Origin: Candidatus Bathyarchaeia archaeon
GTDB taxonomy: Archaea > Thermoproteota > Bathyarchaeia > 40CM-2-53-6
Direction: 5' to 3'
Assembly (NCBI GenBank): GCA_050013255.1
Contig: JBEKFP010000001.1
Location: 224,001 to 288,000, forward strand
Length of the DNA stretch: 64,000 nucleotides
A model generated the notes under the pieces. It was not told the origin of the DNA, searched no databases, and worked only from the letters and a program-made list of their open reading frames with translations. Below are positions 7,633 to 40,766 of the stretch, piece after piece (position 1 is the first letter of the stretch; each line of letters opens with the position of its first letter). The position numbers were made by a program, and so were the translations under genes.

Positions 7633-9123
7633 TTGCAGGTTCCTTTGTTGAAAACTGAGGAAGGATTGAGGCATTCATTTCGCGCGAAATTCGAAGGGAT
7701 ACAGGTTGCCCTTACCTTCCGGGATGTCATGATTCTTCCAGGGCGCGCAGAAGTTGAACCGAGTGAGGTTGATGTAAGGACACGCGTAACGAAAAATCAT
7801 GCCTTGAATGTTCCCTTCGTCTCGTCACCGATGGACACAGTGACGGAGAGTGACATGGCAATCGCTGTTGCGAGACAGGGTGGCTTAGGCGTCGTTCACC
7901 GGAACTGCGCGGTGGAAGAACAAGTTGAGATGGTGAAGCGCGTTAAGAGAGCTGAAGCACTCATAATCCGAGATGTCATAACTGTGACGCCGGAAGATAG
8001 TGTTGGCGAAGCCTTAGCGTTGATGGAAAAACACAACATTTCGGGGCTACCAGTAGTTGATGGAACAAGGCTTGTCGGCATTGTGACAGGGCGGGACGTT
8101 AGGTTCGCCCAACCGAGCCTCTCCGTGAGACAGGTAATGACGAAAGAAGTTGTGAAGGCTGAAGAAGGAATCAGCATCGACGAAGCCCAAAGGTTGCTTC
8201 GAGATCACAAAATCGAGAAGCTCCCGATTGTGAAAAAAACCGGAGAACTGACAGGGCTCATAACATTCAAGGACATACTACTCAGGGGGAAATACCCAGA
8301 CGCCGGTCGGGACGAGAATGGGCAACTACTTTGTGCCGCGGCGGTGTCACCGTACGACCTAGATAGGGCGAAGAAGCTCGACGAGTACGCCGACATTCTA
8401 GTCACTGACGTTTCACATTTTCACAATGAAAACGTCTTCACCGCAACCAAGAAACTGATGTCCGAAGTCTCCGCGGATGTAGTTGTCGGCAACATCGGGA
8501 CGTACGAAGCAGCTGAAGACGTGATTACCGAGCTTGAACAGGTCGGTGGCTTCAGAGTGGGGATTGGTTCTGGCTCAATCTGCACAACGACCGAAGTAAC
8601 CAAGGCAGGGTCCCCGACTTTGTTCGCAACTGCACAAGTTTCAGATGCCGTCACGAAATATGGCGTAAGAATACCCATCATCGCTGATGGTGGAATTCGT
8701 ACGCCTGGAGATGTTGCCCTTGCACTGACTGCAGGCGCGTCGGCAGTTATGGTTGGGAACCTCTTCGCGCGCTGCCAGGAATCCCCTGGGACATTGATTA
8801 CGATAGGTGGACGATACTACAAGCAATACAGAGGGATGGGAAGCCCAACTGCGCGCGCGAAACGTTACTCGCTTGACCGCTACAGCATGCCATCCAAAGG
8901 CGTTCCCGAAGGCGTTGAAGGTTGGGTTCCATACAAAGGTGAAGTGAGCATAGCCCTGGACGAACTCGTTTCAGGATTGAAGGCCTCAATGGGGTACGCC
9001 GGTGCAAAAAACATACAGGAACTATGGTCGAAAGCAAAACTTGCAGCTCTCAGCCCCTCAGGTGCTGAGGAGGCGCGGCCGCACGATATTCTTCTACCGA
9101 GCGAGACGCAAGAAAGAGTCTGA
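7633..9123 (+). CDS. guaB: IMP dehydrogenase with a CBS pair
   Basis: SSPMDTVTE, GIGSGSICTT, IADGGIR, YRGMGS motifs. Confidence 0.96.
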   Translation: MQVPLLKTEEGLRHSFRAKFEGIQVALTFRDVMILPGRAEVEPSEVDVRTRVTKNHALNVPFVSSPMDTVTESDMAIAVARQGGLGVVHRNCAVEEQVEMVKRVKRAEALIIRDVITVTPEDSVGEALALMEKHNISGLPVVDGTRLVGIVTGRDVRFAQPSLSVRQVMTKEVVKAEEGISIDEAQRLLRDHKIEKLPIVKKTGELTGLITFKDILLRGKYPDAGRDENGQLLCAAAVSPYDLDRAKKLDEYADILVTDVSHFHNENVFTATKKLMSEVSADVVVGNIGTYEAAEDVITELEQVGGFRVGIGSGSICTTTEVTKAGSPTLFATAQVSDAVTKYGVRIPIIADGGIRTPGDVALALTAGASAVMVGNLFARCQESPGTLITIGGRYYKQYRGMGSPTARAKRYSLDRYSMPSKGVPEGVEGWVPYKGEVSIALDELVSGLKASMGYAGAKNIQELWSKAKLAALSPSGAEEARPHDILLPSETQERV

Positions 9124-9149
9124 GTACGAAAAGGGCCATAGCACGTTTA

Positions 9150-9165
9150 TATAACCTCCGTCATA
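9150..9165. promoter_or_regulatory. Palindromic operator TATAAC-N4-GTCATA overlapping the TATA box of the HTH regulator gene
   Basis: One mismatch to TATGAC-N4-GTCATA; the same motif precedes sufC and sufB. Confidence 0.6.
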
Positions 9166-9174
9166 CTCGGAGTA

Positions 9175-9570
9175 GTGAATTTCAAAATGCCTATGATACT
9201 CCCCGAAGAGTTAGCTTCGAAATCCGTCATCCCAGCCATTAGAGCGCTCATCGTCAAGAGGCTGGTTGAAGATCACGGGATGACACAACAACAAGCGGCT
9301 AAACTTCTAGGAGTTACGCAACCCGCAGTGAGTAAATACCTCCATGAGAAACGAGGTGCCGCGATAAGGCTCACTGGCATAAGGCAAATCGACCAAGCAA
9401 CCACGGAAATCGCCGAATTGGTCTCCACCCAGAAAGCACAACCGATCGAAGTCATGAGCAGAATCGAGGCTGCGTGCGAATACGTTCGCAGAAATAGATA
9501 CATGTGTGACCTTCACAAGAAGTTGGAACCAGGCATGGACATAGATTCCTGCCACGTATGTGAACAATAG
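9175..9570 (+). CDS. XRE-type HTH regulator (COG2522-like) with a C-terminal CxxH...CxxC metal/Fe-S motif
   Basis: HGMTQQQAAKLLGVTQPAVSKY HTH; CDLH-x11-CHVC tail. Confidence 0.85.
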   Translation: MNFKMPMILPEELASKSVIPAIRALIVKRLVEDHGMTQQQAAKLLGVTQPAVSKYLHEKRGAAIRLTGIRQIDQATTEIAELVSTQKAQPIEVMSRIEAACEYVRRNRYMCDLHKKLEPGMDIDSCHVCEQ

Positions 9571-9612
9571 TCTCAACCCAAACAAGTCTAAGATTCGGAA
9601 GTGTATCATTGA

Positions 9613-10071
9613 ATGGAAATTAAGGTCAAAGCAGGAGACAAAGCTCCCGACTTCGAAGGGCCAACCTCGGACGGCAGCCGATTAGGACTCAAGAATTTTG
9701 CTGGAAAGAAGAACGTCGTGCTCTACTTTTACCCCAAGGACGATGCGCCAGGCTGCACGAGGGAAGCTTGCAGCTTCAGGGACAATATACAACCAATTAG
9801 AGACATGGGCGCAGAAATAGTAGGCGTCAGCCTTGACAGCATTCAGTCCCACGACAGCTTCGCAAAGAAATACCAATTACCGTTCCCATTGATTAGCGAC
9901 AAAGACAAGCGCGTTGCTATGGCCTACGGTGTCCTCAGGGATATCGGGTTGTCCGCGAACCGAATAACCTTCATCATTGACAAGAATGGAGTGGTGGCAA
10001 AAGTTTTCCCTAAAGTTGACGTGTCCAAACACACCGAGGAAGTCGTAGCAGCCCTAAAGGAACTAGCCTGA
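9613..10071 (+). CDS. bcp: Peroxiredoxin, BCP/PrxQ family
   Basis: FYPKDDAPGCTREAC motif. Confidence 0.93.
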   Translation: MEIKVKAGDKAPDFEGPTSDGSRLGLKNFAGKKNVVLYFYPKDDAPGCTREACSFRDNIQPIRDMGAEIVGVSLDSIQSHDSFAKKYQLPFPLISDKDKRVAMAYGVLRDIGLSANRITFIIDKNGVVAKVFPKVDVSKHTEEVVAALKELA

Positions 10072-10189
10072 AGCCCAATTCCTGTCTGTCGTTGAAGCGA
10101 CACGCCCATCAAGAATCTGACAAACTTTTTCAATGCTTACAGACTCCCGCGTGCGTAATTATCACTCGATAGGGGCAGTGGAATAACAG

Positions 10190-10708
10190 GTGAGTCAAGA
10201 AACACTGCAGGACTTCGCTGGGATTTGGATTGGAAAGATCAGCGAAGTCGTTAGAACGATAGTTGGTTCAGGCCCGATCAAGTACTTGATCAACTGGAGC
10301 CGAATGTATGCGCTGTGGCCAGTGCACATTACCACAGCTTGTTGCAGCGCAGAGTTTGGCGCAATGATGGGCCCTCGGCTCGACCCTGAAAGGTTTGGTT
10401 TACAGGCGGTTGCGGGAGGCCTTCGGCAATGCGACCTGATCATTGTGGAAGGTACCGTTACAAAGAAAATGGCCAAGCGCCTCAAAATTGTTTACGAGCA
10501 GATGGCCAAGCCAAGGTATGTAATTGCAATGGGGGACTGCGCTTGTTCTGGGGGCCTCTTTCATGATTCATACAGCATCGTAAATGACGTGCACAAACTA
10601 TTCCCAGTAGATGTGTACGTGCCGGGATGCCCACCTAGGCCCGAAGCACTCCTCAGCGCTATCGTGAAACTACGGGAGAAAATACGGAGAGAAGAGGTCT
10701 TCGCCTAG
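10190..10708 (+). CDS. nuoB: Complex I-like oxidoreductase subunit B
   Basis: TACCSAE, MGDCACSGG, VPGCPPRPE motifs. Confidence 0.93.
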   Translation: MSQETLQDFAGIWIGKISEVVRTIVGSGPIKYLINWSRMYALWPVHITTACCSAEFGAMMGPRLDPERFGLQAVAGGLRQCDLIIVEGTVTKKMAKRLKIVYEQMAKPRYVIAMGDCACSGGLFHDSYSIVNDVHKLFPVDVYVPGCPPRPEALLSAIVKLREKIRREEVFA

Positions 10709-11202
10709 TGGCCCAAGTCGCGCTTCCCCGAGAGGAAGAAATAATCAATCAACTGAAAAGCCAATTTCCGGAAGCGATCAAAGAAACCAAGGTCGACCGA
10801 GCGCGGCGCGTAACCATCACCTTTGACAAGGACCATCTCCTGGAAATTGCAACATTCATGCGCGACCAAGCTGGCTTCGACCACGTAAAAGGAATTGCAG
10901 GCATCGACTACCCACCCCACAAGAAGATAGAGGTCCTATATTTCACGGCCTCATTCTCGAAACCAGACATTCAAGATCTTGTCGTTATTCTGAAAACAGA
11001 ATTACCCCGGGATAACCCATCGATCGCCTCCGTCGTTTCTGTGTGGCAAAGCGCGCATTTCCACGAACGGGAAACATTCGAAATGTTCGGGGTAAAATTC
11101 GAGGGGCACCCTGACCTAAGAAAACTACTCACGTTGGACAATTGGGATGGACCACCCCCGATGTTAAAGGATATTAAATTCCCTGAGATGGGCCAACGAT
11201 GA
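10708..11202 (+). CDS. nuoC: Complex I-like oxidoreductase subunit C
   Basis: ERETFEMFGVKFEGHPDLR motif. Confidence 0.92.
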   Translation: MAQVALPREEEIINQLKSQFPEAIKETKVDRARRVTITFDKDHLLEIATFMRDQAGFDHVKGIAGIDYPPHKKIEVLYFTASFSKPDIQDLVVILKTELPRDNPSIASVVSVWQSAHFHERETFEMFGVKFEGHPDLRKLLTLDNWDGPPPMLKDIKFPEMGQR

Positions 11203-12347
11203 CAACACCCCCAGCTGAGACAAAGCCTCCAGCCCCTCCCATCACGATCACTAAGACTGCAGAACCGTCAACCCTGGACGTATCCGTTGGGCCCCAACAC
11301 CCAGGATCCGGACATTTACGAATGCTCATCCGAGTCGACGGCGACTACATCGTATCCGTAGACCTCGACATAGGCTATGTTCACCGAGGCTGCGAGAAAA
11401 TCGCCGAGTATCGAAATTACGTGAGTAACATCCCGCATCTTGAGAGACCATGCATCATAGACGCCATCCACCTAAACTGGGGCTACGTGCTCCCCGTTGA
11501 AGAACTCCAAGGCGTCGAAGTCCCCCCTCGTGGCCAATATATCTCAACCATCGCGGCTGAAATGAACCGCATAATGAGCCACCTTTATTGGCTGGCAATC
11601 AACGCCGGAGTCTTCTCTGGGCACACAACAATTTTCATGTGGGCCTTCGGCGACCGGGACCTATTCATAGAACTCGCAGAGATGCTGACAGGTGCACGCT
11701 TAACGTACTCGTTTCTTCCGCCAGGCGGCCCCAGGCGAGATTTGCCCTTTGGATTTGAAGACAAACTCACCAAACTACTCGATTACTTTGAGAAGAGGCT
11801 TGTCGAGTACGACCGAATCTTCTTCAGTAATCCACTCGTCGTCGCCCGCGCTAAGGGAATTGGTGTCCTCAAGCGGCAGGAAGCAATAGAGTTAGGTGTA
11901 GCAGGCCCAGTGCTCCGAGGGTCAGGCGTTAAGTACGATGTTCGAAAGGTCGAACCGTACGGAGCGTACGCGGATCTCGATTTTGAAATTCCGACTTACC
12001 AAGAAGGCGACTCCTATGCTAGGTTCATGGTAAGATTTGACGAGATGAAACAGAGTATCAAGATCCTTCGACAAGCGCTCGAGAAAATTCCGAAAGGGCC
12101 CATCGCTCGAAAAGCTCCGCTTGTCGCGCCTGAAGGTGAAGCAACTGGCCGCGTTGAATCTTCCCGCGGAGAATATGCGGTGATGGTTATGGGCGACAAT
12201 AGCGACAAGCCGTACCGAGTCAAAATCATGAACGCCTCCTTCCGAAACTTAATCGCACTACCCTACCTCATCCGCAACGTGCATGTTGCTGATATGCCAA
12301 TCATCTATGGAAGCTTAGACTACTGGCCCGTCGAGGCGGACAGGTAA
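11199..12347 (+). CDS. nuoD: Complex I-like oxidoreductase subunit D
   Basis: GPQHP..GHLR, GYVHRGCEK, ESSRGE, C-terminal EADR; no NiFe CxxC pairs. Confidence 0.93.
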   Translation: MTTPPAETKPPAPPITITKTAEPSTLDVSVGPQHPGSGHLRMLIRVDGDYIVSVDLDIGYVHRGCEKIAEYRNYVSNIPHLERPCIIDAIHLNWGYVLPVEELQGVEVPPRGQYISTIAAEMNRIMSHLYWLAINAGVFSGHTTIFMWAFGDRDLFIELAEMLTGARLTYSFLPPGGPRRDLPFGFEDKLTKLLDYFEKRLVEYDRIFFSNPLVVARAKGIGVLKRQEAIELGVAGPVLRGSGVKYDVRKVEPYGAYADLDFEIPTYQEGDSYARFMVRFDEMKQSIKILRQALEKIPKGPIARKAPLVAPEGEATGRVESSRGEYAVMVMGDNSDKPYRVKIMNASFRNLIALPYLIRNVHVADMPIIYGSLDYWPVEADR

Positions 12348-12364
12348 CTGGAGGCACAATCGGC

Positions 12365-13960
12365 ATGGTATTCGAGGCAATGTACGAAGGAATCAAACAC
12401 ATCTTCAAACGAACATTCACCTTGAAGTACCCCTACCAGAAAGTTTTGCTCCCGAAAGGGTTCAGAGGCCGACACCAGCTTTACATGGAGAAGTGCACAG
12501 GCTGCGGAATCTGCGCGTGGATCTGCCCCGAGAGATGCATAAGCATGGTCCCAGTCACTGACCAAAAGGAATATCCACAAAACCCCGAGAAAAGATTCCC
12601 ACAGTACTGGTACGCCCGCTGCTGTTTTTGCCATTTCTGCGTGGCCCCGGACACACTGGTCACCACCAACCCATCTGTTAAGCCGATCAGTGAAATCCAA
12701 GTAGGCGACCGCGTCTTAACGCACACTGGCTTGCATCGTAAGGTGCGCCAAGTCTACAAACATGACTACTCGGGAAGACTATACACGATAAGGCCTTTGG
12801 GCGCTCCCTTCCCGCTCAAGGTAACAGAAGACCACCCACTTCTTGTTTCAACCAGAAACGTCGTAAAGAAGGGACGACTTGAGAAACAAGTTCGAGAACC
12901 TTCTTGGAAGACACCGAAGGAGTTGAAAGCTGGAGATTACTTGACCCTCCCGATTATGAAGGAAACTCGAGACATCGACTTCTTCGAGCAGCGGGTTACA
13001 GTCGGACAACCGAGCACCGGCAAACGACTACCTCGGCAACTAAAGCTTCCAGCAAGTCCTGAGCTATTCAGGTTAGTTGGCTACTATCTCGCTGAGGGCT
13101 ATGCTGTAAGAAGAACAGTTGGCTTCTCCTTCGGAGAACATGAAACCGAATACATCAACGACACGATCCGGCTGCTCAAGAAGCTGTTCAATGGTAAGCC
13201 GAAGACGCAGACCATTCACCACTCAACGCATGTTCTACTGCACTCCGTTGTAGCCCTCCAATTCTTCGAGACATTTGGACGCAGCTCAGACGGAAAGAAA
13301 GTACCAGATTGGATGATGTTCGCGCCGGTTAAGAAACAAAGAGAATTGGTGCTAGGCGCATGGCGCGGCGATGGATATCTCCATGAACCAACTAAGGGCA
13401 ATAAATCAACGTTCTTTGAATATGTCACCGTCTCTCGAACCCTAGCATTCCAGCTGCAGCAACTGCTTATGAGAATGAATCTAGTCGGGGAATTGGCAAG
13501 CCCTCAACACAAGAACAGGAAGCGCTCCTATGTCCTCGCAGTTCGTGGCAAGTTCGTCCCGCGGATGGCAGAGCTCATGGGCATCAAGTTCAGAGATGTT
13601 CGCGAAAAGACATTTACTAGATTTGAACTAGATGACAACTACGTGTATGCACCAATTCTAAGAATCTCATCAACCGACGTTACGAACCAGCCTGTGGTCA
13701 ACCTCTCGGTTGAAGGGGACGAATCTTACGTTGCAGGAAATGTCACAGCGCACAATTGTACCGATTATTGTCCGACTGGGGCGTTGGATTATACGCCTGA
13801 TTATGAGTTGGCTGAGTATGATCGTGAGTTACTTCTCTGGAGCCCGGAACGACTCTCGAGGCCGGCAACCAACATTGGCGAGTACCAGTCGGTCTTGCAT
13901 GGCAACAAGGGCAGCATGGGCGTCACGTTTGAGCTCGTAAACAAGCGGAAATCAGGCTGA
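12365..13960 (+). CDS. nuoI: Complex I-like subunit I (2x[4Fe-4S]) precursor interrupted by an intein
   Basis: YP....P..FRG, CTGCGICAWICP; the second CxxCxxCxxxCP is split by a 373-aa insertion; spliced product 158 aa. Confidence 0.92.
   Translation: MVFEAMYEGIKHIFKRTFTLKYPYQKVLLPKGFRGRHQLYMEKCTGCGICAWICPERCISMVPVTDQKEYPQNPEKRFPQYWYARCCFCHFCVAPDTLVTTNPSVKPISEIQVGDRVLTHTGLHRKVRQVYKHDYSGRLYTIRPLGAPFPLKVTEDHPLLVSTRNVVKKGRLEKQVREPSWKTPKELKAGDYLTLPIMKETRDIDFFEQRVTVGQPSTGKRLPRQLKLPASPELFRLVGYYLAEGYAVRRTVGFSFGEHETEYINDTIRLLKKLFNGKPKTQTIHHSTHVLLHSVVALQFFETFGRSSDGKKVPDWMMFAPVKKQRELVLGAWRGDGYLHEPTKGNKSTFFEYVTVSRTLAFQLQQLLMRMNLVGELASPQHKNRKRSYVLAVRGKFVPRMAELMGIKFRDVREKTFTRFELDDNYVYAPILRISSTDVTNQPVVNLSVEGDESYVAGNVTAHNCTDYCPTGALDYTPDYELAEYDRELLLWSPERLSRPATNIGEYQSVLHGNKGSMGVTFELVNKRKSG
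12638..13756 (+). mobile_element. Intein with a LAGLIDADG homing endonuclease
   Basis: Cys1 (CVAPDT), block B TEDHP, LVGYYLAEG and GAWRGDG, block F VVNLSVEGDESYVA, terminal HN followed by +1 Cys. Confidence 0.95.
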
Positions 13961-14010
13961 GCCTGTGCTAAGACTGAAATTCTAGTCCGCAGTTCTGTAG
14001 TGAGAGAACA

Positions 14011-14115
14011 ATGTCAGACGTCACCGATGATATAGAGCGGAAGAGGGAGAAGAGAACTAAGGCACGCAAGCGTACGCGTGGTCCTTACAGGAAGTCGTCG
14101 CCGCTTCCATTCTGA
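14011..14115 (+). CDS. Small basic peptide (34 aa) with an RKRTRGPYRKS motif
   Basis: MSDVTDDIERKREKRTKARKRTRGPYRKSSPLPF fills the gap between nuoI and the sufC promoter. Confidence 0.5.
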   Translation: MSDVTDDIERKREKRTKARKRTRGPYRKSSPLPF

Positions 14116-14118
14116 TTT

Positions 14119-14134
14119 TATTACGTACGTCATA
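14119..14134. promoter_or_regulatory. Operator TATTAC-N4-GTCATA upstream of sufC
   Basis: TATTACGTACGTCATA overlapping a TTTTATTA TATA-like box. Confidence 0.65.
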
Positions 14135-14189
14135 CTTAATAGCGAGAGCTAAGTTCTAGCGGAATTAGACAAATCACATGTGACGCATA

Positions 14190-14987
14190 ATGCCAACTAC
14201 GCTTGAAATCAAAGACCTCCACGTAAGCATCGAGGGCAAACAGATTCTGAAAGGGGTCAACCTGAAAGTCACACAAGGTGAAATTCACGCGGTCATGGGG
14301 CCAAACGGGTCTGGTAAGAGCACACTGGCGAACACGCTCATGGGCCACCCCAAATACAAGGTGGAGAGCGGCGACATCCTCGTTAATGGAGAGAGCATCC
14401 TTGGCCTACCCCCCGACGCCCGAGCCAAGAAAGGGCTCTTCTTAGCTTTCCAGTACCCTCTTGAAATCTCAGGCGTCCCACTTGCGCAGTTCCTACGCGC
14501 CGCCTACAGATCATTGAGGGGCGAGACGCCAAAGAACGCTGACTCGAAAGGTGTCGGCGGCGAGATGATCTCCGCCCTCGCATTCAAGAAGAAGCTTGAG
14601 GAGAAGTTGAAGGAGGTTGACATGGATCCTGCCTTCGCGAAACGCTACTTGAACGAAGGATTCTCCGGCGGAGAGAAGAAGCGTGCCGAAGTCCTCCAGA
14701 TGGCAATTCTTCAACCGGCAATCGCGATTATGGATGAAACTGATTCCGGGTTGGATATTGACGCAGTCAGGAAGGTGGCTGAGGTTGTTGCCCACATGGC
14801 TGGGCCGGAAATGGGCGTGCTTCTAATAACGCATTACCAGCGGATTCTGGACTACATAAAACCCCAATTCGTCCACGTTATGGTGAATGGCCGCATATTC
14901 CGCTCCGGAGGACCGGAATTAGCTAAAATGCTAGAAGAACGGGGTTACTCGTGGGTGGAGCAAGAGGCTGCAGCTACCGCTACTTGA
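14190..14987 (+). CDS. sufC: Fe-S assembly ABC ATPase SufC
   Basis: GPNGSGKST, FSGGEKKR, DETDSGLD, ITHY motifs. Confidence 0.96.
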   Translation: MPTTLEIKDLHVSIEGKQILKGVNLKVTQGEIHAVMGPNGSGKSTLANTLMGHPKYKVESGDILVNGESILGLPPDARAKKGLFLAFQYPLEISGVPLAQFLRAAYRSLRGETPKNADSKGVGGEMISALAFKKKLEEKLKEVDMDPAFAKRYLNEGFSGGEKKRAEVLQMAILQPAIAIMDETDSGLDIDAVRKVAEVVAHMAGPEMGVLLITHYQRILDYIKPQFVHVMVNGRIFRSGGPELAKMLEERGYSWVEQEAAATAT

Positions 14988-14997
14988 AAGGAACACT

Positions 14998-15013
14998 TAT
15001 TACGTATGTCATA
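14998..15013. promoter_or_regulatory. Operator TATTAC-N4-GTCATA upstream of sufB
   Basis: TATTACGTATGTCATA in the 46-bp intergenic gap. Confidence 0.65.
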
Positions 15014-15033: not shown

Positions 15034-16437
15034 TTGGCAACTAAGCAAACCCTAGACATCGACTATACCAAGTATAACTTCAGAGACTCCACCGAAGATT
15101 ACGAGTACAAGTTTCCGAAGGGCCTCACACGAGAGGTTGTCGAGAAGATCTCTGCGATAAAGAAGGAACCTGACTGGATGCTCCAGTTTAGGCTGCGTGC
15201 TTACGACCATTTCGTCAAGAGACCGTTGCCCATGTGGGGTGGCGACTTGACCACTCTCAAATTCGATGATATGTTGTATTACGCCAGCCCAACTGAAAAG
15301 AAGAGCCGTTCATGGGAAGACGTGCCTGCGTACATTAAGGATACATTCGATAAGCTGGGCATTCCTGAAGCTGAGAGAAAATTCCTCGGCGGCGTGGGCG
15401 CCCAGTATGAATCCGAAGTTGTATACCACAGCCTTAGAGAAGACCTGGCGAAGAAGGGCATCATTTTCACAGACACCGACACCGCACTCCGAGAGTACCC
15501 GGAAATTTTCAAGAAATATTTCGGAACCGTAATCCCGCCGGAAGATAACAAGTTCGCGGCGTTGAACAGTGCGGTGTGGAGTGGTGGGAGTTTTATCTAC
15601 GTGCCGCCGGGCGTTAACGTCGATGTACCCCTTCAGGCGTACTTTAGAATTAACACGCAAAACATGGGGCAATTCGAGCGAACACTCATCATTGCCGATG
15701 AGAATAGCCGGTTGCATTACATAGAAGGCTGTACGGCCCCAATCTATTCTACCGATTCACTGCACTCAGCCGTGGTCGAGATCATAGCAAGACCAGGCGC
15801 GCACGTACGCTACACGACAATCCAGAATTGGTCTAATGACGTCTACAACCTAGTTACGAAGCGAGCATACGCATATGCTAACGCAACTGTTGAATGGGTT
15901 GACGGAAACCTCGGCAGCAAACTCACAATGAAGTACCCGTCCATCTACCTGCTCGGCCCAGGAGCGAAGGGCGAAATTCTATCAGTAGCCTTCGCCGGCA
16001 AAGGCCAACACCAAGACGCCGGCGGCAAAGTTGTACACCTCGCCCCACACACGACTTCCAGAATCACTTCCAAGTCCGTTTCCAAAGATGGCGGAAGAAC
16101 AACTTACCGAGGCCTACTACACGTCGCTAAGGGAGCTAAGGGGGTCAAGTCGACCGTACGATGCGACGCCCTACTACTTGACGAGTACTCAAGGACCGAC
16201 ACTTACCCATACAACGAGATCAACGAAGACGACGCGACGACAAGCCACGAGGCAACGGTTGGCAAGATCGGAGACGACCAGCTCTTCTATTTAATGTCCC
16301 GCGGACTTTCGGAGCAAGAGGCTCTCAGCATGATCGTCATGGGCTTCATGGAACCATTCACCAAGGAACTGCCGATGGAATATGCCATCGAATTGAACAG
16401 GCTCATCCAAATGGAAATGGCCGGCTCCGTCGGCTAG
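15034..16437 (+). CDS. sufB: Fe-S assembly scaffold SufB
   Basis: [31 protein letters not shown] motifs. Confidence 0.96.
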
Positions 16438-16499: not shown

Positions 16500-17915
16500 A
16501 TGTCAGAGTTGACATTAACAAAAGCAAGCGAACAGCACATCCGATCCTTAGCGGAATCCAGGCATGAACCCGAATGGTTACGGGAATTTCGCATCAAATC
16601 ACTCAACCTGTTTCGCAAGCTTCCCGTCGAACTCTCAAATTTGTATACGAAGTACGTGGACCTTGCAGGCGTCGACTTCGAATCAGTCAGCTTAGCCCCT
16701 TCAGAGCCGTCCGAGTCTCAAATTGAGGACGTTATGGCTAAGCTGAAGTCTGACAAGGCGATCACGATTTTTCAAATTGAATCGAAAACTTTCCCAGCCG
16801 AGATGCCCGAAGCTCTCCGAAAGGAAGGCGTAGTCTTTGCGGATATCGGGACTGCGATTCGAAGCGAACCAGAATTATTCCGTCGCTATTTCCTGGAGAA
16901 AGCAATTCTTCCTGAGGATGATAAGTTCGCGGCATTGAACAACGCGCTCTTCACTTCAGGGTTCTACTTACATGTCCCGAAGGGACTTGAAGTAATCGTC
17001 CCATTCAGGGTCGTAACCATACTCGACTCGGAGGGGCACGGAGTTTTCGCCCAGAACCTTGTAATGGCGGACAATCGGAGTAAGTTTACGATCCTTGAAG
17101 AGTTGTATTCGACTCGCTCAACAGGCCAGTCGAAGTCTACGTACAGTGGGCTATCTGAAGTCTACTTGCACGAAGGCGCAGAAGTTACGTACGGAAGCAT
17201 AAACAACCTATCCCAAAACGTGAACATATTTTCGAACAAGAAATCAATAGGGGAACGGGATAGCAAGATCGTTTGGTCCACAGGATTGCTCGGGGGCGCC
17301 TATACAAGGTCCCGGCTAGAGAGCGTCATGAAGGAATCCGGTGCGTCTTCTGAGAACGTGGAGGTTGTTTTTGGGGCTGGGACGCAACGCTTCGACACTG
17401 TCTCGAACATTACTCATAGCGGGCCAAATACTAGCGGCCACGCTATTTCAAAAGGAGTAGTCAAAGATAAGGCAAAGGCAATCTTCAAGGGTATGATCAG
17501 AATCGAAGCGAACGCTAAGAACTCGCGGGCCTACCTCGCAGAACACGCCATGATACTCAGCAAAGACGCCCTAGCCGACGCAATCCCCGGCCTCGAGATC
17601 GAAACGAACGATGTGAAGGCCACGCATTCGGCGTCGGTCGCGCAAATCGATGAGGAAGAAATCTTCTACCTAATGGCCAGAGGCCTCTCGAAAGATGAAG
17701 CGAAGAAACTCATCATCGTCGGATTCTTCGAACCACTCGTGGAACGCATTCCAGTTCCCGAAGTTGCAAGACGCATTCGAAGAATCATAGACCTGAAATG
17801 GTCAGGCATCTACGACTTCGCCTCCAGCCTCACGATCCCAGCCTTTGACGACGAGTACTACGAAGAGGGACAGAAGACCCGCGACATATTCGAAGGACAC
17901 TACAAGTACCGTTAG
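16500..17915 (+). CDS. sufD: Fe-S assembly protein SufD
   Basis: SufB paralog; PGLEIETNDVKATHSASV and FYLMARG motifs. Confidence 0.92.
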   Translation: MSELTLTKASEQHIRSLAESRHEPEWLREFRIKSLNLFRKLPVELSNLYTKYVDLAGVDFESVSLAPSEPSESQIEDVMAKLKSDKAITIFQIESKTFPAEMPEALRKEGVVFADIGTAIRSEPELFRRYFLEKAILPEDDKFAALNNALFTSGFYLHVPKGLEVIVPFRVVTILDSEGHGVFAQNLVMADNRSKFTILEELYSTRSTGQSKSTYSGLSEVYLHEGAEVTYGSINNLSQNVNIFSNKKSIGERDSKIVWSTGLLGGAYTRSRLESVMKESGASSENVEVVFGAGTQRFDTVSNITHSGPNTSGHAISKGVVKDKAKAIFKGMIRIEANAKNSRAYLAEHAMILSKDALADAIPGLEIETNDVKATHSASVAQIDEEEIFYLMARGLSKDEAKKLIIVGFFEPLVERIPVPEVARRIRRIIDLKWSGIYDFASSLTIPAFDDEYYEEGQKTRDIFEGHYKYR

Positions 17916-31746: not shown

Positions 31747-31989
31747 GTGGCCAGGCGAGTTGAGTTGAAGAAGAAGCGGTTCTTCGTTGCAATCGATTTC
31801 TCGAGGTACAAGGGCAGATACGTTGCCGTGGTCGGAAAGAGAGTCGTTGCAAGCGGAACCAACGCGAAACAAGTGTGGTTAGAGGCCAAAAGGAAGAATC
31901 CTAAAGCTCGACCCGAGCTTCACAAGGTCCCGAAGGACGAGACGCTCGTGTTGATTGATCAATTGCCTACTTTCAACCGTTCTCGGTAA
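31747..31989 (+). CDS. DUF5678-like small protein
   Basis: YKGRYVAVVGKRVVASG motif; 3' end runs into the msrA repeat. Confidence 0.65.
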   Translation: MARRVELKKKRFFVAIDFSRYKGRYVAVVGKRVVASGTNAKQVWLEAKRKNPKARPELHKVPKDETLVLIDQLPTFNRSR

Positions 31990-32519
31990 TGTTCCCGAAA
32001 CTTCCTAACTTTGGGCGCAATTACAATTTGGCAGTATTGTTGCCTTGGGTTATTCTCGAAGTATTTCTGGTGGTAGTCCTCGGCCTTGTAGAAGGCTTTC
32101 AACGGTTCGACTTGCGTAACGATCGGCGCATCCCAAATCCCGGCCGCCGTGATTCCCTTGATCACATGTTCGGCGACCACCCTCTGTTCGCTATTATGGT
32201 AGAAAATGACGGAACGGTACTGAGTGCCCACGTCAGCCCCCTGCCGGTTTAGAGTTGTAGGGTCGTGTACGGTGAAGAAGACCTCGAGGATTTCCTTGTA
32301 TGAAATTACCTCAGGATTAAAGGTCACTTGCGCTACTTCAGCGTGCCCAGTTCTCCCCGTGCAGACCTGTTCGTAGCTTGGATTTGCAATCGTCCCCCCA
32401 GAATATCCGGGCTCTACCTTCACGACGCCCTTCAAGCCACTGAAAACTGCTTCCGTACACCAGAAACAGCCGCCCCCGAGAGTAGCTACTTCATCACTCA
32501 TGCTTTCCTTTTGGGGCAA
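31959..32519 (-). CDS. msrA: Peptide methionine sulfoxide reductase A
   Basis: GGGCFWC, GHAE, HDPT, AEDYHQ motifs. Confidence 0.96.
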   Translation of the reverse strand: MPQKESMSDEVATLGGGCFWCTEAVFSGLKGVVKVEPGYSGGTIANPSYEQVCTGRTGHAEVAQVTFNPEVISYKEILEVFFTVHDPTTLNRQGADVGTQYRSVIFYHNSEQRVVAEHVIKGITAAGIWDAPIVTQVEPLKAFYKAEDYHQKYFENNPRQQYCQIVIAPKVRKFREHYRERLKVGN

Positions 32520-32672
32520 TCATGACGTATAAACTCGAACTTTTGACATCAATGATTAGAATCTCAAAAGGTAGCTCGATACGATTCTGGAAGGGGTCTC
32601 TCGCAAATTGAACTCGTTATGATCCAAGCGACTCAGTTCTTTGATACCAAGTCAATATCTAGGGTTGGTTGA

Positions 32673-39039: not shown

Positions 39040-39117
39040 GCTCAGCAGAGAGAATGAGTTGGAGAACTTATATCACGTCATACACGTTACTTCAACCAAT
39101 GTTCGCCGGTCTAGGTA

Positions 39118-40362
39118 ATGGTCGAAAAAGTTACAACGATAAACGTTTCTAAGCTCCGAGAAGACTTTCCGGTTCTAAAACGCCAAGTCAACGGAAAACC
39201 ACTCATCTACTTCGATAACGCCGCCACATCACAAAAACCCGAATCCGTCATAGAAACCACAGACCGGTACTACAGAGAGTACAATGCGAACATTCATCGC
39301 GGAATCCACAAACTAGCTGAGGAAGCAACACTCGCGCATGAAGAAGCAAGAGAAAAAATCGCCAAATTCATCAACGCAAAGCACACCGAAGAAATAATTT
39401 TCACACGAAACGCAACTGAAGCGATAAACCTAGTCGCCTACACCTGGGGCAGGGCGAACATTGGGAAAGGGGACAAGATTGTCTTAACAATCATGGAGCA
39501 TCACAGCAACATAGTTCCGTGGCAGTTGCTTGCACAAGAAAAGGGCGCCAACGTTGAGTACGTAAAGATTGATAATGGAGGGTTGCTCCGCCTGGATGAA
39601 GTTCACGAGTTGATTGATGAGAGAACGAAGATCGTGTGCGTAACTCAAGCCTCTAACGTGCTTGGAACGATTAACCCAGTTAAGGAGATTGGCAAGGTCG
39701 CCCACCGCTACGGTGCAATGTTCTTAGTTGATGCAGCCCAGTCCGTTCCGCACATGCGTGTTGACGTTAGGGATACTGACAGCGACTTCTTCGCATTCTC
39801 AGGCCACAAGATGTTGGGCCCCACCGGAATTGGAGTCCTCCACGGGAAGAGCGAACACCTCAGGAGAATGCCGCCATTCTTGGGTGGTGGAGAAATGATA
39901 AGGGAAGTTCACACTACCGGAGCCTCGTGGAAGGACATCCCATACAAGTACGAGGCTGGGACACCAAACATAGTCGGCGCCATCGGCCTCGGGACGGCAG
40001 TGGATTATCTCAGCAAGATCGGAATGGAAAACGTCCATGAGCATGAGAGAGAAATCTCCAAGTACGCAATTGGAAGAATGAGCGAAGTAAAGGACCTCAC
40101 CCTATATGGGCCCAGAGACATTGCACAAAGGGTCGGCGTACTCTCTTTCAATTTGGGAGACATCCATGCCCACGACCTCGCTTCAATCTTGGATGAAGAA
40201 GGCATCGCCATAAGGTCAGGGCACCATTGCGCCCAACCCTTGATGGAATTCCTAAACGTCCCCGCCATGTCGAGAGCAAGCTTTTACATTTACAACACGA
40301 AAGAGGAAGTTGACGTATTCATCAACGCCCTTGAGAAGGCCAGGAAGCTATTCGCGCGATGA
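39118..40362 (+). CDS. sufS: Cysteine desulfurase SufS
   Basis: YFDNAAT, EHHSN, SGHK, RSGHHCA motifs. Confidence 0.96.
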   Translation: MVEKVTTINVSKLREDFPVLKRQVNGKPLIYFDNAATSQKPESVIETTDRYYREYNANIHRGIHKLAEEATLAHEEAREKIAKFINAKHTEEIIFTRNATEAINLVAYTWGRANIGKGDKIVLTIMEHHSNIVPWQLLAQEKGANVEYVKIDNGGLLRLDEVHELIDERTKIVCVTQASNVLGTINPVKEIGKVAHRYGAMFLVDAAQSVPHMRVDVRDTDSDFFAFSGHKMLGPTGIGVLHGKSEHLRRMPPFLGGGEMIREVHTTGASWKDIPYKYEAGTPNIVGAIGLGTAVDYLSKIGMENVHEHEREISKYAIGRMSEVKDLTLYGPRDIAQRVGVLSFNLGDIHAHDLASILDEEGIAIRSGHHCAQPLMEFLNVPAMSRASFYIYNTKEEVDVFINALEKARKLFAR

Positions 40363-40766
40363 GTTCTGAAATCTACAAAGACATTATTTTGGACTATTAC
40401 CGGAACCCGCGCAACTTCGGTGACCTACAGGACCCGGATGTCCGCGCGAAGGACTCGAACCCGTTATGCGGCGACATCATAGAGATGCAGCTGAAGATCA
40501 AGGACGGTAAGGTGGACGATATACGGTTCAAGGGTAAAGGCTGCGCCATTAGCCAAGCCTCAGCTTCAATGCTCACAGAGGCGGTCAAAGGGAAGACACT
40601 TGATGAAATCAAAGCCATGGGCAAACCTAACGTGCTGGAACTCCTAGGCATAGACCCAGGCCCAACTCGAATCAAATGCGCCCTGCTAGGCTTGAAAGTT
40701 CTGAAACTCAGTGTTTACGGCTACCTCGGGCAAGCAGTAACCGATGAAGTAAAGCAACTAGTCTAA
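40359..40766 (+). CDS. sufU: SufU/IscU-type scaffold or sulfur-transfer protein
   Basis: NPLCGD, GCAISQAS, RIKCALL motifs. Confidence 0.88.
   Translation: MSSEIYKDIILDYYRNPRNFGDLQDPDVRAKDSNPLCGDIIEMQLKIKDGKVDDIRFKGKGCAISQASASMLTEAVKGKTLDEIKAMGKPNVLELLGIDPGPTRIKCALLGLKVLKLSVYGYLGQAVTDEVKQLV

Follow-up and report, generated by a model that had tools for sequence, protein, structure and literature searches.

In a 64,000-nucleotide (nt) stretch of the genome of a Candidatus Bathyarchaeia archaeon from soil (assembly GCA_050013255.1, contig JBEKFP010000001.1, positions 224,001 to 288,000; hereafter the window), the gene of an XRE-type helix-turn-helix (HTH) regulator shares a 16-bp promoter dyad with sufC and sufB, genes of iron-sulfur (Fe-S) cluster assembly. 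The triad of regulator, operator, and regulon is real and conserved, and is apparently undescribed in the literature that we searched. We favor, with somewhat better than even confidence, a mechanism in which a homodimer of the regulator binds the dyad and probably represses its own operon together with suf, rhodanese, and ZIP genes, with an iron, Fe-S, or redox signal acting through a site at the dimer interface. The operator, its conservation, the members of the regulon, and the covariation of protein with operator were computed; repression, the nature of the signal, and the site that senses it are what we infer from them.

The pattern TATWAC-N4-GTCATA has three exact matches in the window, at 9150-9165, 14119-14134, and 14998-15013, all on the + strand, all intergenic, and all within promoters. 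The expected number was 0.01 and none of 100 shuffles gave three matches, which bears out the initial annotation of this DNA, where one 16-bp near-palindrome had been seen at the regulator, sufC, and sufB promoters. The whole genome (2.46 Mb, 50% G+C) has four exact matches, each at a promoter, the fourth being 5' of an S8 peptidase gene on contig 3. The consensus of the 16-bp dyad is roughly TAT-K/A-AC, four variable bases, and GT-C/M-ATA. In about 20 genomes of the genus the half-sites at the regulator, sufC, and sufB promoters are fixed, with the 4-bp spacer and the flanks drifting. A generalized palindrome search of five related genomes gave 20 sites versus 6 in the reversed control, and a scan of the genome with a position weight matrix (PWM) gave 14 sites of at least 14 bits versus 3 in the reversed genome. 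The bare half-site ACGTCAT, also put forward earlier as a signal, was rejected as such, its frequency in the window being at chance (6 occurrences versus 7.3 expected). We conclude that the 16-mer is a real conserved operator, as predicted from its sequence.

At the regulator promoter the operator (9150-9165, + strand, exact match) overlaps a TATA-like box (9146-9153) and ends 21 nt 5' of the ATG (9187). Sampling of 22 other genomes of the genus showed that the TATA box and the half-sites are kept, with the spacer, the 5' leader, and the upstream flank varying. Both half-sites are retained in at least 18 of 21 genus genomes, and three genus genomes have a perfect palindrome. The sufC operator (14119..14134, + strand, exact match) abuts a TATA-like box (14135-14142) and ends 55 nt 5' of the sufC ATG (14190). 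The sufB operator (14998..15013, + strand, exact match) begins 11 nt past the sufC stop codon, overlaps a TATA-like box with its left half, and ends 20 nt before the TTG start codon (15034), a position that is ATG in relatives. The dyad is present at sufC in 20 of 21 genus genomes, and likewise in 20 of 21 at sufB, compared with 0.9% of random 100-nt windows, and two sister genera have a near-perfect palindrome 5' of sufC. These counts support the first proposal of an autoregulated HTH regulator and a dyad common to its own, sufC, and sufB promoters. The gene names given earlier (SufC, SufB, SufS, and MsrA) also agree with the domain matches: sufC (14190..14987, + strand) matches TIGR01978 (4.8e-100, above the cut-off) and sufB (15034-16437, + strand) matches TIGR01980 (1.2e-216). 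SufD (16500-17915, + strand; TIGR01981, 6e-76) and SufU were assigned in the same manner.

The case of sufS (39118-40362, + strand; Aminotran_5, 2.6e-157), which is followed by sufU (40359-40766, + strand; NifU_N, 3.2e-30), is mixed. A full dyad directly 3' of the TATA box is found in 10 of the 21 genus genomes, with PWM scores of 9.4-23.8 on a scale where 0.2% of random windows score at least 10, and thus the site proposed earlier exists in relatives. In this genome it scores -4.4. The promoter (39066..39090, + strand) retains a TATA-like box and one surviving half-site at 39075-39081, one position from where it was first placed, and looks like a decayed remnant of the operator with an apparent 3-bp loss relative to the nearest relatives.

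The regulator gene (9187..9570, + strand) encodes 127 residues and is followed by a gene for a peroxiredoxin of the Bcp/PrxQ type (9613..10071, + strand; AhpC-TSA, 2.9e-39; PrxQ-like). As the 42-nt gap between them lacks a TATA or promoter-like box, the two genes are probably co-transcribed. guaB (7633-9123) lies 5' of the regulator, and the order guaB-regulator-bcp is kept in 20 of 21 genus genomes.

Outside the window, the PWM scan added sites at the promoters of a two-domain rhodanese (3-mercaptopyruvate-sulfurtransferase-like) gene and of a ZIP/ZupT-like transporter gene. In about 17 orthologues the TATA box of the rhodanese promoter is fused to the dyad, an arrangement missing from paralogous copies, and the ZIP promoter dyad is kept in about six orthologues. 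A second IMP-dehydrogenase-like gene (contig 1, 1364630-1366084) is divergent from the operator-bearing rhodanese gene, a recurrent pairing in that the regulator likewise lies just 3' of a guaB-like gene. Further PWM matches, at the S8 peptidase gene, a methyltransferase gene, an SRPBCC protein gene, a radical-SAM/enoyl-CoA hydratase spacer, and an open reading frame (ORF) of 126 residues, are candidates that we do not claim as members. The msrA gene (31959-32501, - strand) was rejected as a member. Its half-site (32522-32528, again displaced by one position in the initial annotation) is attributed to chance, since even the closest relatives lack it, and PWM scores are low throughout. The nuoB promoter lacks the operator dyad and has a different conserved inverted repeat. 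With the rhodanese and ZIP genes added and msrA removed, the predicted regulon is wider than the set first proposed.

A link between this protein and this operator is well supported by the wider family. Distant members from other Bathyarchaeia families have one or two copies of the same dyad directly 5' of their own TATA box. Another clade of the family, which has Leu at position 50 of the recognition helix, has a TTAC/GTAA version and is divergent from the gene of a flavodiiron protein (an O2/NO reductase), and one family member is divergent from a SufC-like ATPase gene. Residue 50 and the half-site vary together: Lys or Arg accompanies TGAC/GTCA, Leu or His accompanies TTAC/GTAA, and Asn accompanies neither. 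This pattern matches what direct base contact would predict, although the covariation comprises few independent events, because the residue-50 groups are clades. The ammonia-oxidizer-like and other aerobic members have no clear dyad at their own promoters and therefore we do not apply the operator model to them.

These comparisons bear on the reading that the 16-mer is an element common to core promoters, or is bound by a different factor, with the XRE protein a mere neighbor. The TATA-like ends of the pattern do bias matches toward promoters and the protein-site link is indirect. A general element of this kind is nevertheless very improbable, given that the dyad symmetry is kept, and is perfected in relatives, as the spacer varies, that the placement of the dyad relative to the TATA box differs among genes, and that there are very few sites per genome. 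Moreover, in distant lineages the dyad accompanies the family at the promoters of its own genes, and its sequence varies in step with a residue of the recognition helix. As for another binder, other Bathyarchaeia have a multi-winged-HTH gene divergent from the regulator, and a search of this genome with it as the query recovered no counterpart.

The regulator consists of an XRE-type HTH, a helical domain, and a C-terminal segment with C107, H110, C122, and C125, and is the single family member in this genome. The HTH_3 model (PF01381) matches residues 24-56 with 29.8 bits versus a cut-off of 23 and is matched also by 74 of 100 family members. The Cys-rich half at the C-terminus has no Pfam model. 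The AlphaFold2 (AF2) model has a predicted local distance difference test score (pLDDT) of 96 and is all-helical. Comparison with PDB structures by Foldseek and VIA-align yielded no convincing fold, the top hits (E 0.4, Z 5.2) being unrelated helical proteins or weak XRE-type matches, and a profile search of PDB sequences returned generic HTH matches and no solved structure like the regulator beyond the HTH. Neither Rrf2 nor a SufR or ArsR/DeoR-type signature is among the Pfam and NCBIfam matches at E <= 0.01, in agreement with the earlier statement that the protein is unrelated to IscR and SufR.

Close homologues of the regulator come from Candidatus Bathyarchaeia, and a search at E <= 0.001 puts the family as a whole at 1108 representative clusters. 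Within the phylum, 280 of the 301 genomes sampled encode a member, as do 118 of the 131 genera. The picture first drawn, of a suf regulator across the TACK archaea, does not fit this near-universal distribution, nor the finding that four of the five other Bathyarchaeia having self-operator copies gave no SufB/D core match.

A complex predictor gave the homodimer a score of 0.53 versus 0.00 for the best of three controls. Of proteins solved as one-chain pairs, 20 of 30 reach the mark, compared with 1 of 23 among those solved as single chains. Agreement between runs was at least 83% of contacts, with a partner pLDDT of at least 83. Hence, pairing of the regulator as a homodimer is supported by modeling, short of proof. 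In the predicted interface residue 7 touches residue 7 of the partner, and residues 94 and 97 touch partner residues 5-7.

The regulator has two sets of candidate metal ligands. The C-terminal set, C107-x2-H110-x11-C122-x2-C125, is as first annotated (CxxH-x11-CxxC) and had been proposed to be an Fe-S sensor. In that reading the Cys3His set would hold a [2Fe-2S] cluster as in IscR and cluster occupancy would control DNA binding. Each of the four residues is kept in about 96% of family members and throughout the genus, segment 114-124 lies within the predicted dimer interface, and the make-up of the regulon is as expected of a sensor of Fe-S demand. Other properties of the motif point elsewhere. 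An HTH-ThiN fusion paralogue of a related archaeon aligns with the regulator over residues 3-125 (BLASTP E 3e-11) with the CxxH and CxxC motifs aligned, and its effector is its ThiN domain (2.4e-44), for which the regulator, ending at residue 127, has no match. The motif is kept beside unrelated genes and in genomes without a SufB/D match, as would fit a structural metal site, and in the AF2 model CxxH is on a helix and CxxC in a loop, a spacing of a kind typical of Zn sites. Because the Cys3His set is retained whatever the effector domain, the neighboring genes, or the presence of suf, it more probably serves the DNA-binding module as a structural metal site. We regard an IscR-like role for it as decidedly unlikely, and of the earlier proposals this is the least supported, along with that of a TACK-wide suf regulator.

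The second set is the interface triad, to which one subunit would contribute residue 7 and its partner residues 94 and 97. These three positions are all Cys in 62 of 126 representatives and mostly all non-Cys in the remainder. Sister genera, where the triad reads Cys/Cys/Cys, have seven Cys, and in them the operator likewise precedes both the regulator gene and sufC. Among the 121 sequences of the genus clade, which are at least 83% identical, E7, E8, E94, C97, C107, H110, C122, H123, and C125 are invariant and 26 other positions vary. This variable triad at the predicted interface is the better candidate for the sensor, and in the genus, where it reads Glu/Glu/Cys, a mononuclear metal or other chemistry is as likely there as a cluster.

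In the mechanism that we favor, the homodimer would bind the 16-bp dyads that overlap or abut the TATA boxes of the regulator-peroxiredoxin operon, sufC, sufBD, sufSU (in many relatives), the rhodanese-type sulfurtransferase gene, and the ZIP (ZupT-like) importer gene. Bound protein would most likely block access of TBP and TFB and therefore repress. Release would then induce cluster assembly, the supply of sulfur and metal, and the removal of peroxide together. The signal would probably be iron, Fe-S, or redox status, sensed at a metal site for which residue 7 together with residues 94 and 97 of the partner is the better candidate. In the promoters of the regulator, sufB, the rhodanese gene, the ZIP gene, and, among relatives, sufS, the dyad lies over the TATA box or immediately 3' of it, and a site so placed is the classical arrangement of archaeal repression by exclusion of TBP, TFB, or RNA polymerase. 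The composition of the regulon (Fe-S scaffold, cysteine desulfurase, sulfurtransferase, divalent-metal importer, and peroxiredoxin) fits a response to Fe-S shortage brought on by iron limitation or oxidants. IscR, SufR, Fur, and PerR obey a similar logic with folds unrelated to that of this protein.

Several considerations count against this mechanism. Its entire support is computational, the PWM was built from the same promoters that it scores, and the genus-wide counts overstate the support because related genomes are not independent. At the candidate sensor an Fe-S cluster is doubtful in the genus, since one Cys remains at the interface site, and the Cys3His segment, by lying in the predicted interface as well, may still be the sensor. 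Finally, sufC and the self-promoters of other Bathyarchaeia have the dyad immediately 5' of the TATA box, and some archaeal factors activate from such a position. The protein may thus be an activator or a dual regulator at some promoters, recruiting TFB or TBP. In most genus genomes the sufC dyad does end directly 5' of the TATA-like box, as do the tandem self-sites of other families. We hold activation to be unlikely, as the regulator, sufB, rhodanese, ZIP, and (in relatives) sufS promoters all have the dyad on their TATA box or 3' of it, and a site that covers the B recognition element (BRE) can repress too.

The nature of the signal admits a further reading, in which the protein is a regulator of peroxide or thiol-redox stress that follows PerR/OxyR logic, with oxidation of Cys residues or of a bound metal releasing the repressor. 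The regulator shares its operon with a peroxiredoxin, the Leu50 clade is divergent from flavodiiron O2/NO reductase genes, and a regulon of suf, metal importer, and peroxidase genes resembles bacterial OxyR and PerR regulons. Set against these points, msrA, a typical oxidative-stress gene, has a half-site that is not conserved, and no catalase, superoxide dismutase, or thioredoxin promoter is among the sites of at least 14 bits in the PWM scan of the genome. Sequence alone does not separate redox sensing from Fe-S sensing, and we give a dedicated redox regulator a minor share of the probability.

Among known systems the regulator resembles IscR in being a putative autoregulated dimeric factor with palindromic sites at Fe-S assembly genes and a Cys3His set of candidate ligands. 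It differs in having an XRE HTH without an Rrf2 domain, another ligand spacing, and archaeal TATA/BRE promoters. SufR, the cyanobacterial and actinobacterial repressor of sufBCDS, is likewise an autoregulated suf repressor encoded nearby and has a Cys-rich C-terminal region, and in the SufR/IscR functional class the operator is found at the regulator's own promoter and at suf promoters, as it is here and in sister genera. Unlike SufR, the present family is near-universal in its phylum and has members also where no SufB/D was found, and the regulator gave no SufR match. The likeness to Fur and PerR lies in the targets (suf, a divalent-metal importer, a peroxidase, and the regulator's own gene) and in a possible pair of structural and regulatory metal sites; the fold of the regulator is unrelated to theirs and there is no evidence of a His-rich regulatory site.

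The HTH-ThiN proteins share a 125-residue module (HTH, helices, and CxxH...CxxC) that aligns at their N-terminus with the regulator, which lacks the ThiN effector domain and has other target genes. ThiR-type proteins of this architecture reportedly regulate archaeal thiamine genes. In other genomes of the phylum stand-alone family members are found convergent to an HTH/Cys-ThiN fusion paralogue.

In NsrR and RsrR, which are Rrf2 relatives, the partner subunit supplies an N-terminal acidic residue that completes the cluster, and the predicted geometry of residues 7' and 8' with 94 and 97 resembles these inter-subunit cluster sites. We put forward, tentatively and at less than even confidence, that the family is an unrecognized class of metal or Fe-S sensing regulators having a cross-interface site (residue 7 with residues 94 and 97, beside the near-invariant Glu8) convergent with that of NsrR and RsrR. 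This site would have been remodeled from Cys3 to Glu2Cys in an oxygen-exposed genus in which the regulator governs Suf, sulfurtransferase, ZIP, and peroxiredoxin genes.

The field is dominated by the bacterial models IscR, SufR, RirA, and Fur. We know of no dedicated archaeal transcriptional regulator of Fe-S cluster biogenesis and none was described in the literature that we searched. The present work supplies a concrete regulator, operator, and six-promoter regulon. If the proposal is true, the protein is a candidate for a dedicated regulator of Fe-S biogenesis in archaea, a counterpart of IscR, SufR, or Fur. The change from Cys3 to Glu2Cys at the interface, in a lineage that has SufSU, the peroxiredoxin, and NuoBCDI, would be a natural experiment on sensing versus oxygen.

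Between the regulator operon and the suf genes lie nuoB, nuoC, nuoD, and an intein-bearing nuoI (10190-13960), a compact module without membrane-subunit genes alongside. The intein of nuoI (12365-13960) has a LAGLIDADG domain and sits inside the ferredoxin-like region (Pfam Fer4, Intein_splicing, LAGLIDADG_3, and Hint_2). The distance from the regulator to sufC is about 1 kb greater here than in most relatives. A 34-codon ORF (14011-14115), placed after nuoI and before the sufC operator, specifies a highly basic peptide with a Pro-rich tail at its end. It is probably a real small gene, because relatives in the genus conserve the amino acids of its C-terminal part.

A 16-mer that resembles one half of the operator has seven identical intergenic copies in this genome, on contig 1 at 107431, 413559, 421730, 524953, 829990, and 1240798 and on contig 2 at 487920. 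At least two of the copies adjoin the 3' end of a tRNA gene and have about 70 nt of flank in common, and the 16-mer appears to mark one end of an element that is repeated or integrated, and not to be a site of the regulator. Last, at 10072-10150 a conserved inverted repeat 3' of the peroxiredoxin gene is followed by a conserved T-rich box before nuoB; this arrangement is genus-wide and unlike the operator, and could represent a terminator with the nuoB promoter next to it, or else a binding site for a different factor.

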